DNA of 64,000 nucleotides, taken from Escherichia phage LPEK22. The first letter of the stretch is position 1. Every line of letters begins with the position of its first letter. Below the pieces are notes generated by a model, which saw only the letters and a program-made list of their open reading frames with translations, ran no database searches and was not told the origin of the DNA. The position numbers and the translations under genes are program-made. This document shows, piece after piece, positions 4,801 through 26,003 of this stretch. Where the stretch lies: sequence record OK283619.1, one strand, 5' to 3'.

Positions 4801-6300
4801 ATGTCTGAGATCCAAATAGTCAAAGTGAACGAAGTTAGAATGCGGATCCTTACCGAGGATTATATCCGTGAAGAACTCAACGATTACTTCAAATTTGAAG
4901 ATCCTAATTTCCAACCGAATCCGTTCAGTAAATGGGACGGCGTAGTGCGGCTGTTCACAAAGAGTTCTGGGCTTATCGACATCGGCCTGTTATTTGAGGT
5001 GTTCAAATTCTGTAAGATGAACGGTTACACCATCAAATTAGATCCGACCTTAAAATATATTCAAGATATTCCGGATGAAGAAATTCATGCGTTCATCGAT
5101 ACATTGAATGCGGTGTACCGAGACGAAAACAAACAATATCAAAAAGCGATTGTCCGCGATTATCAATTTGATTCTGTTGCCACAGCAATACGCCAAAGCA
5201 GATGTGTCCTCGAAGCTGCCACGAGTGCTGGCAAATCCTTTATTTTGTACATCATGGCGCGTTACTACAGGCAACGCAGAGATGCCCTCGAAAGTAATCT
5301 GAGGACGTTAATTGTTGTACCATCCATTCATTTGGTGACTCAGTTGTATGACAACTTCGAAGAATATAGCCACGGGACAGAATGGAAGCCATTGATGAAC
5401 GTCCAGACAATATACGAAGGGGCAACGAAAGAGATTTTCAAACCCATAGTTATTTCAACTTGGCAAGGTATCCAGAACCAACCCAAAGAGTGGTTCCATC
5501 AATTTGGAGATATCGTCGTCGACGAAGTACATACATCAAAATCAGATAAATTGTCTTACATCTTGAACAACTGTATTAACGCTGATCAACGTTTGGGAGT
5601 AACCGGAACCCTGGCGAATACAAAGGTCGCAGGGTTACAAGTCGTTGCTCACTTTGGCGCATATCATAAAATTATTACAGCGCGCGATTTAATCGATCTA
5701 GGATATGCGGTAGACATCAATGTTAATATGATTGAAGTCATACATCCTATGGCAGACTGTATTGAAATGCACGGTGCTGAGTATCAAAAGGAAATAGAAT
5801 TCCTCATTGCTAACGAACGCCGCAATGAATTGATAGCCCGAATGGCTCTATCTTTGAAAGGGAACGTCGCAGTCATGTTCGAACGTATCGATGCACACAT
5901 GATGTTGGTTTATGAAATGCTATCGGCAGTCAAGAAAAACGTATTCGTCATCAACGGGGAAGTCAAGACAGAAGTTCGTAAACAGATTCAGGCTGCTATG
6001 GAAGAAGGGGAAGATATAACACTGTTGGCATCATATGGTACTATGCAACAGGGCGTATCTATCAAAAAACTCCATCATCTGATATTGGCCCATCCCAGCA
6101 AATCTTATATCCGTGTTATACAGACATTGGGGCGTTTGATGCGCCAGCATTCCTCTAAGGATGTTGCGCGAATCTGGGACCTGGTAGACAACCTGCGTTA
6201 CAACGGTTCCTACAACCATGCTCTCAGGCATTCTCATGAGAGATATAAATTTTATCTTATGGAGCGCCACCCTGTTAAAATGAAAAAAGTGGCGCTCTAA
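4801..6300 (+). CDS. uvsW: UvsW-like SF2 DNA/RNA helicase
   Basis: Walker A TSAGKS, DEVH box, VASYGTMQQGVS..LHHLILAH; collinear recalled similarity to T4 UvsW. Confidence 0.9.
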   Translation: MSEIQIVKVNEVRMRILTEDYIREELNDYFKFEDPNFQPNPFSKWDGVVRLFTKSSGLIDIGLLFEVFKFCKMNGYTIKLDPTLKYIQDIPDEEIHAFIDTLNAVYRDENKQYQKAIVRDYQFDSVATAIRQSRCVLEAATSAGKSFILYIMARYYRQRRDALESNLRTLIVVPSIHLVTQLYDNFEEYSHGTEWKPLMNVQTIYEGATKEIFKPIVISTWQGIQNQPKEWFHQFGDIVVDEVHTSKSDKLSYILNNCINADQRLGVTGTLANTKVAGLQVVAHFGAYHKIITARDLIDLGYAVDINVNMIEVIHPMADCIEMHGAEYQKEIEFLIANERRNELIARMALSLKGNVAVMFERIDAHMMLVYEMLSAVKKNVFVINGEVKTEVRKQIQAAMEEGEDITLLASYGTMQQGVSIKKLHHLILAHPSKSYIRVIQTLGRLMRQHSSKDVARIWDLVDNLRYNGSYNHALRHSHERYKFYLMERHPVKMKKVAL

Positions 6301-21336: not shown

Positions 21337-22026
21337 ATGAAACGTTTAATCATCGGGGTTGTGCTGGCTGGTCTGGCACTTCCTGCCACCGCCAAGCTGA
21401 ACTCCACAGGTGAAAAACTGTGGTCTGATCTTTCCTACTGTGCTGGGTTCTCCCAAGCCGTCGCTATAGACAAAACTGGTTCCATAGAGAACTTTGCTGA
21501 ACTCTGGACCACAGGTAATGTCACAGATGCCGTTGTAAATGCTGGTATTGAGTTTAATCGATATAAGCAAGGCGCGTTCAACCTGAAAGGATATATGAAC
21601 GACAAAGAATTTAACCGAGGAGGCATGGAGGCTGGCGATCTTATTATGACTGGTCGTATGGGTACACAAGGACGAATGACCGTAAGACAGTGCCGTTCTC
21701 TTCCTTCTCCAGCATTACAAAAAGGTGTGCAGGTTGGCCGACGTCAGCTGGATCTCATCAATGATGGCAACCAATGCATCAAGGTGTTTGAATATAGTGC
21801 CGACCAAGAATCAGATCGACGTTTGAAAAAGGAATGGCGGACTCGCGCCCTTGGCCTGAGAGCATGGCTGGTGGAAAATGATCATTATTATGAAGACCGT
21901 GTTCAGAATGGTTTGAAAGATCTTTCCACTAATTTGTCTGTCAATCTTGATGATCCAAGGCTTTCCCGTGAACTCAAGCAAACAAGAATTGACTGTGATA
22001 ATATGATGAAGGAGAACGAAAGATGA
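21337..22026 (+). CDS. secreted protein with Sec signal peptide (229 aa)
   Basis: Start at internal ATG with AAGGAG RBS; N-terminus MKRLIIGVVLAGLALPATA is a signal peptide. Confidence 0.5.
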   Translation: MKRLIIGVVLAGLALPATAKLNSTGEKLWSDLSYCAGFSQAVAIDKTGSIENFAELWTTGNVTDAVVNAGIEFNRYKQGAFNLKGYMNDKEFNRGGMEAGDLIMTGRMGTQGRMTVRQCRSLPSPALQKGVQVGRRQLDLINDGNQCIKVFEYSADQESDRRLKKEWRTRALGLRAWLVENDHYYEDRVQNGLKDLSTNLSVNLDDPRLSRELKQTRIDCDNMMKENER

Positions 22027-22343
22027 AAATCAAAATCTTATTGTTATTCCTGTGCACTTTCATGTCTTCCCAAGTATTGGCAGCTCCGGCCAGTAAGTTG
22101 AATATTTGTGCTGCTTGGTTGTCTACATATCAACAATTCCATCCGGATGATAAGGATACATCAATTCTTTTATCTGATTATGAAGGTGAATTGAAACGCC
22201 TTGATCTCTATAGTGTGGACCAGATAGAGAATGCGCTTGATTTATCTATGATGGAATCTGCCGCAGACAACAGCAAACAGACTATTAAAGATCTGACGAT
22301 GTGTCGTGAAATTGCAACTAATTTCGTTGGAAATCAAAGATAG
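22023..22343 (+). CDS. small secreted protein with signal peptide (106 aa)
   Basis: MKIKILLLFLCTFMSSQVLA signal peptide; ATGA overlap with upstream gene. Confidence 0.5.
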   Translation: MKIKILLLFLCTFMSSQVLAAPASKLNICAAWLSTYQQFHPDDKDTSILLSDYEGELKRLDLYSVDQIENALDLSMMESAADNSKQTIKDLTMCREIATNFVGNQR

Positions 22344-23184: not shown

Positions 23185-23198
23185 TTCAATAACATTAG

Positions 23199-23227
23199 GG
23201 CGGTTATTATTAAACCGCCTTTTATTT
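23199..23227 (+). terminator. rho-independent terminator
   Basis: GGCGGTT...AACCGCC hairpin followed by TTTTATTT. Confidence 0.6.
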
Positions 23228-23241
23228 GAGAGATCTATATT

Positions 23242-23911: not shown

Positions 23912-24199
23912 ATGTCCGGCGTATGGTGTGATGTATTGTTGGTAAGATTTTCAAACGGGATGGATAATCAGATCATTTCATTCTTTTATCCTGTTCCCTT
24001 TTCTTCTATGGGTCTGACTGTCAAGCGCGTTCTTGACATAGAAGAAAAACTCAACACGATGCCGTATATGGCGCGACCACACGTGCTGGGTTGTGAACTG
24101 TTAAACGAAATGATGATTGACGAGAATCTTGTTGAAACAATTATCACGCGTGAACAGATGAAAACCATACTGTCTCAGGGAGAACCCCATGTCGAATAA
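23912..24199 (+). CDS. hypothetical protein (95 aa)
   Basis: Start at internal ATG with GGAGGTG RBS. Confidence 0.4.
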   Translation: MSGVWCDVLLVRFSNGMDNQIISFFYPVPFSSMGLTVKRVLDIEEKLNTMPYMARPHVLGCELLNEMMIDENLVETIITREQMKTILSQGEPHVE

Positions 24200-24509
24200 A
24201 CCGTTTGAACTTAAATTTCGCGTTTGGCATATTCCCCAGGTTCCTGGGATCGCTTTTCATGTTGAGGTTCCAACATTTGAAGAAGCGCAGCGCCTGAAGA
24301 ATACTCTGGCTGATTACGACCTGTTTCAGTATAACAATAACATCAAGCCGGATTATTGTAATGCTTCCGGCGTTCAAATATACCAACATGATCTGACTGA
24401 AGAAGATCTAAATGATATGGGTCTGGATGATCGTTGGGTTGATATCGAAGATATTGACGAACTCAACGATTATTTTGATCATCTGCGTAGCACAGGGTGG
24501 GAAATATGA
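24189..24509 (+). CDS. hypothetical acidic protein (106 aa)
   Basis: ORF with RBS GGGAGA. Confidence 0.45.
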   Translation: MSNKPFELKFRVWHIPQVPGIAFHVEVPTFEEAQRLKNTLADYDLFQYNNNIKPDYCNASGVQIYQHDLTEEDLNDMGLDDRWVDIEDIDELNDYFDHLRSTGWEI

Positions 24510-24715
24510 TCGGGTTAATCCGTTATCTGTTCATATTCGTAATTTCAACATTCATTTTATTTTTCTTTTTCAAATACTTGAAAGAGACTAAAATCTACCG
24601 AAGTAAACGTTGGCGTAAACGGGTGAGGGTAACTTTCCTGCTGCTGATTTCTTCGGTTACAATAACCGCACTCACATTGGGTGCATATATCTACATTTTT
24701 GAAGGGGTACATTGA
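24506..24715 (+). CDS. small membrane protein, two predicted TM helices (69 aa)
   Basis: ATGA overlap with upstream gene; hydrophobic LIRYLFIFVISTFILFFFF and FLLLISSVTITALTLGAYIYIF. Confidence 0.45.
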   Translation: MIGLIRYLFIFVISTFILFFFFKYLKETKIYRSKRWRKRVRVTFLLLISSVTITALTLGAYIYIFEGVH

Positions 24716-25506
24716 TGTTCAAGAAATTGGTGTTTGGTGCAATTATGGTTCTGGCTGCAAGTCTACTTTCTGGTTGTGGTGGCGTTATCGATGAAGGTAA
24801 TGTCGGCGTTCGCACCCAATGGGGTGAAGTAGACATGAACCCTGTAACAGCGGGGATCTACACCAGCTTTGTTTCAAGCGTGGATGTTTACACGACCAAA
24901 GAAGCCGTTGTGAGTCTGACGAAAATGACGCCAAAGGCCAAAGACAACCTGACCTTGGAAGATCTGGATGTGGACGTTTATTACACACCGAACGTCGCGA
25001 AGGTTCCTTGGTTCCATACCAAATTTGCAGGTCAGAGCGCTGAACTCGGTGACGGCACGATAGCGGTGGGATTCAACCTGGTTAAAACCGCCGCAGCATC
25101 CTCAACGATGGACGCCGTTTCCTCTTTGGATTCTATGACAATTCACACCCAACGGGCTGAGTTAGAAAAGATGATCAAGGAACGCACCCAGCAGCAATTG
25201 GAAACTGCTGCGCCTGGCATGTTCACAATCACACGTGTGTTGGTGAAAAAGGCGCTGACAGATCCTTCGATTGAGCAATCTATCCGTGATAATGTCATGG
25301 CCGACAAACGTTTGGATACAGCAAGAAAGAACGTTGAAATTCGAGACCAAGAAGCCAGGGCGAATCAGAAACTGACGACATCTCTGACACCTGAATATTT
25401 ACAACACGAATATAACATGGTGTTGCAATCTTGCGCCAACAGCGGGAAATGTACTCTGATTGTTGATGGTTCAGGCTCAAGTAAAATGCTAAACGTCGGC
25501 AAATAA
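24712..25506 (+). CDS. SPFH/band-7 (prohibitin-like) domain lipoprotein
   Basis: Lipoprotein signal with lipobox LLSGC; GNVGVRTQWGEV...VDVYYTP resembles SPFH domain. Confidence 0.6.
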   Translation: MMFKKLVFGAIMVLAASLLSGCGGVIDEGNVGVRTQWGEVDMNPVTAGIYTSFVSSVDVYTTKEAVVSLTKMTPKAKDNLTLEDLDVDVYYTPNVAKVPWFHTKFAGQSAELGDGTIAVGFNLVKTAAASSTMDAVSSLDSMTIHTQRAELEKMIKERTQQQLETAAPGMFTITRVLVKKALTDPSIEQSIRDNVMADKRLDTARKNVEIRDQEARANQKLTTSLTPEYLQHEYNMVLQSCANSGKCTLIVDGSGSSKMLNVGK

Positions 25507-25589
25507 ACGCTTTATTCAATAGTATTTGTTAGGTAAGCTGTAGTCCTCTTGTAGTGAAACATCGTAAACAACTAACTGGAGTAATCCGA

Positions 25590-25868
25590 ATGAACCGTAC
25601 TGATTTTATCGCTCACATCGCTCAAACCCAGGGTATGACCAAAGGCGAAGCTGAGAAAATCGTTGCATCTTTTATCAATGGCGTGAAAACTGCAGTCGCG
25701 GCTGGCCAATCTGTCCAATTCGTAGGCTTCGGCGCGTTCGAAGTTAAACATCAGGAAGCGCGCACTGGCCGCAACCCGCTGAACGGACAACAGATCCAGA
25801 TCGAAGCGAAAAATGTAGTTAAATTCAAAGTCGGTGAAGGTCTGAAAGCTGCTGCCAACGGCCAGTAA
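25590..25868 (+). CDS. HU/IHF-family histone-like DNA-binding protein
   Basis: FVGFGAFEVKHQEARTGRNPLNGQQIQIEAKNVVKFKVGEGLK matches the HU beta-arm signature; start moved to ATG with GGAG RBS. Confidence 0.85.
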   Translation: MNRTDFIAHIAQTQGMTKGEAEKIVASFINGVKTAVAAGQSVQFVGFGAFEVKHQEARTGRNPLNGQQIQIEAKNVVKFKVGEGLKAAANGQ

Positions 25869-25928
25869 TCACACCAGGCGTCGGCTCAGCGCATGTCTGC
25901 AGTGCAGCGGCGCAAGGCTAAAAGGAGA

Positions 25929-25955
25929 AGCCGAGGTTAATGCCTCGGCTTTTTC
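25929..25955 (+). terminator. rho-independent terminator after HU gene
   Basis: AGCCGAGG-TTAAT-GCCTCGGCT hairpin followed by TTTTT. Confidence 0.7.
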
Positions 25956-26003
25956 GTTGTTGGGATTCGGGTAAACTATAACAGAATCCAAAGGAGGAAC
26001 AAC

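Follow-up and report, generated by a model that had tools for sequence, protein, structure and literature searches.

Recent work has shown that SPFH proteins, among them prohibitin, stomatin, flotillin, HflK/C and erlin, build cages that enclose membrane, and their function and their recruitment of clients are debated. Why a virulent phage should encode such a protein, and what is contributed by a very small membrane protein encoded immediately before it, are questions raised by a locus of Escherichia phage LPEK22 (sequence record OK283619.1). A stretch of 64,000 nucleotides (nt) of this genome, hereafter the window, was analysed, and positions given without a locus name refer to it. At 24506–25506, an earlier sequence-only reading had described a 69-amino-acid (aa) protein with two transmembrane (TM) segments, translationally coupled to a 264-aa lipoprotein with an SPFH/prohibitin-like domain, and had suggested that the pair could act in the exclusion of superinfecting phages, in the timing of lysis or in remodelling of the envelope. 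The small protein is here termed the hairpin, and the two genes together the cassette. The SPFH lipoprotein itself was known before, having been annotated in T4-like phages in 2006 (PMC1524935), in a more recent study (PMC10892097), and in GenBank and PHROGs; a 2026 paper states that the presence or role of SPFH proteins in phages ‘remains unclear’ (PMC13239085). What is new is the conserved, phage-specific hairpin partner that accompanies the SPFH lipoprotein. In the literature that could be searched, no description was found of this partner, or of its absence from bacterial homologues. Literature searches on Kuttervirus transcriptomics, on SPFH proteins in superinfection exclusion and on SPFH proteins in anti-phage defence returned nothing usable.

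A hairpin partner conserved among phages

Over the region 24189–25600 the window matches Salmonella phage BSP101 (Ackermannviridae, Kuttervirus; window positions equal positions in NC_049382 minus 84042) with 100% identity; about 175 further records of Kuttervirus, Vi01, CBA120, Det7, SFP10 and PhaxI among them, are 93–100% identical. Kuttervirus phages are generally known to be virulent, in agreement with the lytic lifestyle assumed in the sequence-only reading. The double-TM protein lies where that reading had placed it, with hydrophobic stretches at residues 2–22 and 42–64, and the proposed translational coupling fits the junction of the two genes, at which the TGA of the hairpin gene and the ATG of the SPFH gene overlap by 1 nt (TGATG), with a Shine-Dalgarno-like motif, GAAGGGG, 8 nt upstream. 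On the other side, an ATGA likewise joins the hairpin gene’s ATG to the stop codon of the gp17-like gene before it. The length of the lipoprotein needs a small correction: it is 263 aa from the ATG at 24715, and reaches the 264 aa proposed earlier if the TTG at 24712 is taken as the start.

Conservation of the pair was followed with an alignment of 48 homologues of the SPFH protein (A1, which also served as AlphaFold input), with which a pattern-based scan of IMG/VR gave 47 loci; pairing was counted in the divergent loci from outside Kuttervirus, where SPFH identity is 25–54%. Among the 33 divergent viral loci, about 30 have a two-TM open reading frame (ORF) of 53–66 aa that ends −4 to +41 nt from the SPFH start. 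When 320 control ORFs (at least 150 aa, from the same loci) were put to the identical test, 5 passed, and the adjacency of hairpin and SPFH genes is therefore not due to chance. The pair persists across SPFH divergence to about 25% identity. It is found in phage Bue1 of Erwinia; in BCSR5, a jumbo phage of Burkholderia, where it is kept though a transfer RNA (tRNA)-Ala gene sits between the two genes (locus L141, 1397–1469); in the cyanophage Synechococcus phage S-CREM1, whose SPFH protein is TM-anchored and has no lipobox; in T4-like metagenomic contigs (L004, 4862–5827, and L005), where the cassette directly follows rIIB; and in contigs of about 110 kb, including some from Burkholderia gladioli and Massilia assemblies. 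At locus L033 the hairpin lies 200 nt upstream of the SPFH gene and was recovered by profile. Clustering of neighbouring genes in 35 phage loci gave no conserved third gene around the pair, the best being an RNase T-like exonuclease (8/35).

The bacterial relatives present a different picture. One genome per species was scanned, giving 142 relatives, of which the best 80 were analysed. These best 80 of the 142 are chromosomal, share 33–43% identity, and come from Steroidobacter, Methyloversatilis, Zoogloea, Rhizobacter, Ideonella and other genera; an N-terminal TM helix serves as the anchor in 51, and an ‘SSC/GT’ lipobox occurs in 27. An upstream hairpin is absent from 78 of the 80, the exceptions being a phage-like Massilia contig and one false positive. 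Their neighbourhoods hold no conserved gene (the most frequent occurs in 8 of 80), and there is no link to ftsH or any other protease gene. Because the bacterial relatives are without the upstream hairpin, the sequences identify it as an addition specific to the phage-borne clade.

Some further observations on these loci were made in passing. Intact, syntenic hairpin genes have been left out of public annotations or metagenome gene calls in Bue1 (L006, 2804–2998), Guerrero (L136, 1501–1707) and the T4-like contigs (L004, approximately 5830–6000), and the practical consequence is that many genome annotations miss this gene. In the phage-like contigs of about 110 kb (a 111-kb B. gladioli contig, L002; a 113-kb Massilia sp. 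contig, L056; and the IMG/VR contigs L019–L031, L039, L047 and L048, of 108–114 kb) the cassette lies by genes for an RNase T-like protein, an RNA ligase and RtcB. A number of these phage-like sequences stand as separate contigs in bacterial-isolate assemblies, and a carrier state or a phage-plasmid is possible. Contigs of about 75–77 kb with very acidic proteins (L051–L055), possibly HF1/HF2-like haloarchaeal viruses, encode a TM-anchored SPFH protein (L052, 3986–4861); a 44-aa single-TM ORF begins 2 nt downstream of that gene (L052, 4863–4997) and may represent a different small-partner arrangement. In the T4-like contig L004, a BI-1/YccA-like gene (PF01027; 9578–10270) lies 3.5 kb downstream of the cassette; E. 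coli YccA is a ligand of HflKC-FtsH.

Fold, anchor and topology of the two proteins

The SPFH/prohibitin-like domain was submitted to a profile check, which it passed: Pfam Band_7 (PF01145) matches residues 24–208 with an E-value of 1.2e-12 (48.6 bits, against a gathering cut-off of 23.6). The same domain is found in 58 of 58 database homologues, and in PHROGs the protein belongs to phrog_200, ‘lipoprotein’ (E 1.9e-57). A PDB sequence search with the family profile gave weak prohibitin matches and nothing else, the closest solved structure being prohibitin-2 (E 7e-5), so a fold search was needed. The AlphaFold2 (AF2) model of the lipoprotein (predicted local distance difference test score, pLDDT, 88.9) comprises a signal helix, SPFH1, SPFH2, a 40-residue CC1 (184–223), CC2 (226–242) and short C-terminal strands, and thus, as modelled, has the complete architecture of an SPFH cage protomer. 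Foldseek searches of the PDB with this model returned full-length alignments (230–290 columns, E 1e-8 to 1e-13), headed by prohibitin (8rrh, E 8e-13), with further matches to erlin1/2, HflK/C with FtsH (9cz2, 7vhq and 7wi3), stomatin, QmcA-YbbJ (8z5g), flotillin and the vault shoulder.

Within this widespread fold, which is common in phages and giant viruses, the subfamily represented in the window is a small, separate one: when 1.84 billion cluster representatives were searched with a profile, 131 clusters matched at E ≤ 1e-30 and 3496 at E ≤ 1e-3. Assignment as an HflK/HflC equivalog (TIGR01932/01933) was rejected, the NCBIfam hflC model scoring 12.1 bits against a cut-off of 134.4; the NCBIfam scan gave noise-level matches to Lpp, TrbH and hflC and nothing more, and a PADLOC scan of three operon proteins had no match at E ≤ 0.1. 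The protein is made, since three spectra of Sajous1 gp200 were recorded in a CsCl (caesium chloride)-purified phage preparation, beside non-virion proteins such as rIIB (PMC10892097).

The N-terminus of the lipoprotein, MFKK-LVFGAIMVLAASL-LSG/C, consists of a basic n-region, a hydrophobic h-region and a lipobox with its cysteine at residue 21. It conforms to the [LVI][ASTVI][GAS]C pattern of signal peptidase II substrates, so that the lipobox proposed earlier is present in the sequence and with it a predicted signal-peptidase II site, and a lipobox is present in 37 of the 48 homologues in A1. Related SPFH forms carry an N-terminal TM helix as their anchor, as in HflK/C; in the window the membrane anchor typical of the SPFH family is predicted to be a lipid in place of this helix. 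The cysteine is followed at +2 and +3 by Gly-Gly, and 2–3 residues separate it from the first SPFH strand; with so short a spacer, SPFH1 must lie flat against the membrane that anchors it. A CX5C pair (Cys240 and Cys246) is located between CC2 and the final strand; it occurs in 33 of the 48 family members, exclusively in lipobox forms, and in none of the best 80 of the 142 bacterial relatives. Such a pair would fit an oxidising, periplasmic location. Together, the signal peptide with its lipobox, the CX5C pair, and the existence of TM-anchored relatives like HflK/C suggest that the lipoprotein is exposed to the periplasm.

The hairpin is simpler. The loop between its two hydrophobic stretches, KYLKETKIYRSKRWRKRVR, includes 10 lysine or arginine residues, and its AF2 model (pLDDT 77) consists of just two helices, 2–27 and 34–68. 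Across 32 syntenic homologues the mean net charge is +3.3 for the loop and +0.2 for both termini together, and an acidic residue is found in the C-tail of 20 of the 32. Because the loop is basic and the termini near-neutral family-wide, the positive-inside rule predicts an N-out/C-out topology, with the loop cytoplasmic and both ends periplasmic. PHROGs places the protein in phrog_11680, a family of unknown function. The sequence evolves fast, a database-wide sequence search returning just three close relatives, and the family was followed through synteny and a local profile. Homology could be established transitively (window protein to Bue1, E 0.003; Bue1 to a profile of the remaining hairpins, E 1e-6), and the hairpin profile scores every syntenic ORF above a background of 2388 small ORFs.

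Several established identities were considered for the cassette and rejected. The hairpin is not an NfeD protein (PF01957), having no Pfam match at E ≤ 1 save spurious TM ones and, with 69 aa and two helices, no room for an OB-fold. Nor is it a class II holin or pinholin: there is no Pfam or PHROGs holin match, its predicted topology is N-out/C-out with no charged cytoplasmic C-tail, where such holins are N-in/C-in with a charged tail, and it lies among replication genes with no endolysin nearby. An Rz/Rz1 spanin pair, in which an inner-membrane protein bearing a long periplasmic coiled coil is matched with a small proline-rich lipoprotein of the outer membrane, is at odds with a hairpin that has no periplasmic domain and a lipoprotein with 243 mature residues and an SPFH fold, and identity with T4 Imm or Sp is countered by the lack of either family among the Pfam and PHROGs matches.

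Genomic setting and accessory status

The cassette is part of a transcription unit that extends between two intrinsic terminators and contains the gp144, gp143 (DUF7425), gp17-like, hairpin, SPFH and HU-like genes (Table 1). This unit is embedded in a T4-like replication/recombination cluster (UvsY, clamp, clamp loader, RegA, denV, helicases, RNase H, gp55 and gp46/47). Within 20 kb of the cassette there is no T4-type late promoter (TATAAATA), and no endolysin or holin gene lies near it. From this context, the cassette is probably expressed early or in the middle period, with the replication genes; its place among them, at a distance from any gene for lysis and any late promoter, tips the balance slightly towards an early role at the envelope and away from the timing of lysis.

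Among the Ackermannviridae, the slot immediately before the HU gene varies in content. It is syntenic and free of the cassette in Limestonevirus RC-2014, Taipeivirus Menlow and Agtrevirus EspM4VN, and in the Kuttervirus isolates kage, STP55 and GG32 an in-frame deletion joins hairpin residues 1–16 to SPFH residues 198–263 (kage, L008, 2450–2701). At least 80% of the SPFH gene is retained in 166 of 181 records. Given its absence from other Ackermannviridae genera and its deletion in three Kuttervirus isolates, the cassette is, to judge by these genomes, accessory: dispensable for propagation and usually retained.

Table 1. Coordinates of the cassette, its parts and the limits of its transcription unit in the window
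Feature	Position	Strand	Basis
Hairpin membrane-protein gene (BSP101 gp141, CBA120 orf127A)	24506..24715	+	ATG 24506 to TGA 24715, 69 aa; ORF and hydropathy; phrog_11680, E 1.2e-46
Hairpin TM1	aa 2-22, 24509-24571	+	Hydropathy
Hairpin basic loop	aa 23-41, 24572-24628	+	10 K/R
Hairpin TM2	aa 42-64, 24629-24697	+	Hydropathy
Hairpin C-tail FEGVH	24698-24712	+	
SPFH/Band-7 lipoprotein gene (BSP101 gp140, CBA120 orf126)	24715..25506	+	ATG 24715 to TAA 25506, 263 aa; PF01145, phrog_200, AF2, Foldseek
Predicted signal peptide with lipobox LLSG/C (Cys21)	24715..24777	+	Sequence and lipobox pattern
SPFH1 and SPFH2 alpha/beta domains, aa 22-182	24778..25260	+	Pfam match aa 24-208; AF2 secondary structure
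CC1 (aa 184-223) and CC2 (aa 226-242), wall/cap elements of SPFH cages	25264..25440	+	AF2 helices; full-length structural alignments
CX5C pair (Cys240, Cys246) and C-terminal strand region TLIVDG...	25432..25503	+	Family alignment
gp17-like gene (PF17420), upstream	24189..24509	+	Pfam, E 1e-49
Intrinsic terminator 5' of the gp144/gp143/gp17-like/hairpin/SPFH/HU unit	23197..23228	+	Terminator scan and sequence
Intrinsic terminator 3' of the HU-like gene, 3' end of the unit	25928..25957	+	Sequence GAAGCCGAGGTTAATGCCTCGGCTTTTTCG; scan gave the same palindrome on the minus strand

The gp17-like gene was considered as a third member of the cassette and rejected, as it is not syntenic outside Kuttervirus: there it shares the operon of the hairpin gene, to which it is translationally coupled, in Bue1 its place is two genes downstream of SPFH, and Menlow has the gene but no cassette. 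It encodes an acidic protein without TM segments (PF17420, ‘superinfection exclusion gene product 17’); gp17 of P22 helps that phage to escape exclusion by a prophage and is not known to cause exclusion itself. In the Vi01 lineage an extra LysM gene is found between the gp17-like and hairpin genes. This LysM-domain gene (L136, 1187–1504; L008, 2145–2453; L138, 3075–3389), which encodes no signal peptide, is present or absent by Kuttervirus lineage and absent from the window; Menlow has it, annotated as ‘endolysin’, without the SPFH cassette. Several periplasm-directed proteins cluster upstream of the cassette, including the products of two overlapping genes (21337–22026 and 22023–22343), both with cleavable-looking signal peptides. 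The second is labelled ‘Rz-like spanin’ (phrog_3843), a doubtful label given that it has no lipobox and no o-spanin candidate nearby. Two records, ‘Pseudomonas phage Pa-sanjiao’ and an ‘Enterococcus phage’, are nearly identical to Salmonella Kuttervirus genomes, and their host labels are probably wrong.

A possible periplasmic scaffold, its alternatives and its relatives

What the pair might do can be sketched from its architecture. We tentatively favour, at a confidence not quite reaching an even chance, a reading of the cassette as a phage-specific two-component SPFH membrane scaffold, in which a lipoprotein cage and the hairpin are combined at the periplasmic face of the cytoplasmic membrane. 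The hairpin would insert in that membrane with its ends periplasmic and its basic loop cytoplasmic. Both proteins would be made together, probably in similar amounts because of the overlapping start codon, and would interact. The acylated cysteine would hold the SPFH lipoprotein flush against the membrane in the periplasm, where, by analogy with HflK/C, prohibitin and erlin, it may form an oligomeric ring or dome seated on the periplasmic side of the cytoplasmic membrane. The hairpins could then supply in trans the transmembrane ‘fence’, or an enclosed client, that the lipid-anchored protomer lacks, and may also retain the lipoprotein in the inner membrane. The outcome would be a fenced-off membrane microdomain in the infected cell, and the most probable benefit the protection or re-organisation of the host envelope early in infection, possibly in the form of hindered DNA entry by superinfecting phages or resistance to premature membrane permeabilisation.

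A broader version of this proposal, which we regard as doubtful, is that large virulent phages of at least four unrelated lineages (the Ackermannviridae; T4-like phages, including cyanophages; the ~110-kb Burkholderiales phages; and the jumbo Burkholderia phage) carry their own kit for a periplasmic SPFH nanocage. In this kit a bare hairpin, a partner of a new class acting in trans, would replace both the TM anchor and NfeD, and the cage would fence in areas of the host’s inner membrane, for example as a shield against DNA entering from competing phages or against abortive-infection effectors that permeabilise the membrane.

A number of findings weigh against the two-component scaffold. Lipobox forms exist in 27 of the bacterial homologues analysed and have no hairpin; a lipid anchor by itself thus does not call for one. 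The hairpins are weakly similar in sequence, the window protein alone matching a profile of the others at E 0.08. Each end of the hairpin exposes approximately 1–5 residues to the periplasm, and any contact with the SPFH protein would therefore have to take place at or within the membrane. A function-specific signature was not found, whether in PADLOC, among Imm, Sp, holin and NfeD families in Pfam and PHROGs, or among conserved neighbours, and early or middle expression is read from genomic context only. Finally, the +2 residue of the lipoprotein is Gly in the window, with Asp in no viral locus and in one homologue overall. The enterobacterial +2 rule therefore predicts transfer to the outer membrane, away from the inner-membrane hairpin.

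This last point leads to the main alternative, that the Lol system delivers the lipoprotein into the outer membrane’s inner leaflet. SPFH rings located there would act on outer-membrane components, with receptor masking, envelope stiffening or the promotion of outer-membrane vesicles as possible effects, and with the hairpin as a helper (for example in assembly or release) or as a functionally linked, physically separate partner. The characterised phage lipoproteins Llp, Cor and Rz1 are outer-membrane proteins, in line with such a destination, as is Gly at +2 in phages of enteric hosts. The Pasteurella multocida prophage-encoded HflK/C-like protein PM0222 (OAZ06802.1) has been found in outer-membrane vesicles, a case whose homology to the window’s SPFH family could not be checked (PMC9872710). 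We nonetheless consider an outer-membrane site unlikely. In close homologues the anchor is an N-terminal TM helix, possible in the inner membrane only, and the partner that is so strictly conserved, an alpha-helical hairpin, belongs to the inner membrane and has hardly any periplasmic portion. Moreover, the +2 rule is not decisive: Seydel et al. are said to have described in 1999 that Gly, Tyr or Phe at +2 may also retain lipoproteins in the inner membrane. Somewhat less probable again is mimicry of a host protease cage, in which the phage protein would co-assemble with, replace or compete with HflK/C around FtsH or another membrane protease and so change the turnover of membrane proteins. Topology and fold are indeed those of HflK/C and prohibitin, both partners of AAA proteases, some databases name homologues ‘regulator of protease activity HflC’, and one T4-like lineage encodes the BI-1/YccA-like protein near its cassette; set against this are approximately 15% identity to HflK/C, the hflC score far below its cut-off, and bacterial homologues with no linkage to ftsH or any protease gene, and the model leaves the hairpin without a role.

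A role in lysis timing would make the hairpin a holin- or antiholin-like pore former whose oligomerisation is restrained or timed by the SPFH cage. Two-TM phage proteins of 60–70 aa are often holins, the T4-like contigs place the cassette after rIIA/rIIB, genes linked to lysis and membrane integrity, and the gene labelled ‘Rz-like spanin’ lies 2.2 kb upstream in the window and about 460 bp upstream in Bue1. Yet that label is doubtful, as its product has a signal peptide and no lipobox, and neither the family searches, the predicted topology and C-tail (unlike those of class II holins and pinholins) nor the setting among replication genes, with no endolysin nearby and no late promoter found, speaks for a holin; we judge this role improbable. 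Far more improbable still is that the small ORF is no functional partner at all, being a chance ORF or an unrelated small membrane gene beside an ordinary phage SPFH gene. Its fast-evolving sequence, with three close relatives in a database-wide search, and its omission from several annotations are what might be expected of such an ORF, but its position and architecture are kept in about 30 of 33 loci (5 of 320 for controls), down to about 25% SPFH identity and even across an inserted tRNA gene; its junction with the SPFH gene shows a Shine-Dalgarno motif and a stop codon that overlaps the next start; and the profile puts the syntenic ORFs above all background ORFs.

The phage version of the SPFH protein comes with an obligatory-looking two-TM hairpin that bacterial homologues lack, which offers an experimentally tractable handle: there are two small genes, dispensable for the phage, and the natural deletion mutants kage, STP55 and GG32 are ready-made cassette knock-outs. 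Among the carriers of the cassette are phages of Salmonella and E. coli O157 that grow readily and are used in biocontrol. If the pair forms a cage, it would provide a minimal two-protein model of SPFH assembly, and it might reveal a new phage strategy for control of the host envelope; the broader nanocage proposal, if true, would make it the first functionally defined viral SPFH system.

Among known systems, the annotated phage SPFH/Band-7 proteins (CBA120 orf126, Sajous1 gp200 and phrog_200; ORFs of the T4-like phages 44RR, Aeh1 and RB43; and GIB1 of the Schitoviridae) represent the same gene or superfamily. Those reports annotate the SPFH gene only; no mention of the conserved hairpin was found in them, and its gene is often unannotated. 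T4 Imm is an early, small inner-membrane protein with two hydrophobic segments and Sp is membrane-anchored and periplasmic, both protecting the envelope of the infected cell. The likeness of the cassette to them does not go beyond functional analogy: neither sequences nor profiles show similarity, and Imm and Sp are neither SPFH proteins nor an adjacent, coupled pair. SPFH-NfeD operons (E. coli QmcA-YbbJ, 8z5g; YqiJ-YqiK; B. subtilis YuaF-FloT) resemble the window in that an SPFH gene adjoins the gene of a small membrane protein, with which its product is presumably assembled. For the NfeD family, the earlier statement that SPFH proteins often partner small membrane proteins is accurate; it does not carry over to this locus in that form, where the partner is a bare two-TM hairpin (53–69 aa across the family) that is without the OB-fold domain, for which 69 aa are too few, and without a Pfam match. 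QmcA itself, a structural match to the lipoprotein (E 1.5e-8), is TM-anchored and faces the cytoplasm, whereas the window’s SPFH protein is predicted to be lipid-anchored and to face the periplasm.

HflK/C, prohibitin and erlin are the best structural matches (E 1e-9 to 1e-13) and share with the phage protein both its extracytoplasmic orientation, as predicted, and the full protomer architecture. These complexes differ in being built from a hetero-pair, whereas the window encodes one protomer type, and in having an N-terminal TM helix where the phage protein has a lipobox; the phage CC1 is shorter (40 aa), identity is approximately 15%, and no protease partner is known for the phage protein. 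Flotillin is a weaker match (E 1e-7) and differs in being eukaryotic, bound to the cytoplasmic leaflet, palmitoylated as well as myristoylated, and furnished with a much longer coiled coil. Like the window protein, however, it is an SPFH cage protein without a TM helix, held by lipid modification and the surface of SPFH1, and it thus provides a precedent for a lipid-anchored SPFH cage (PMC12624060).

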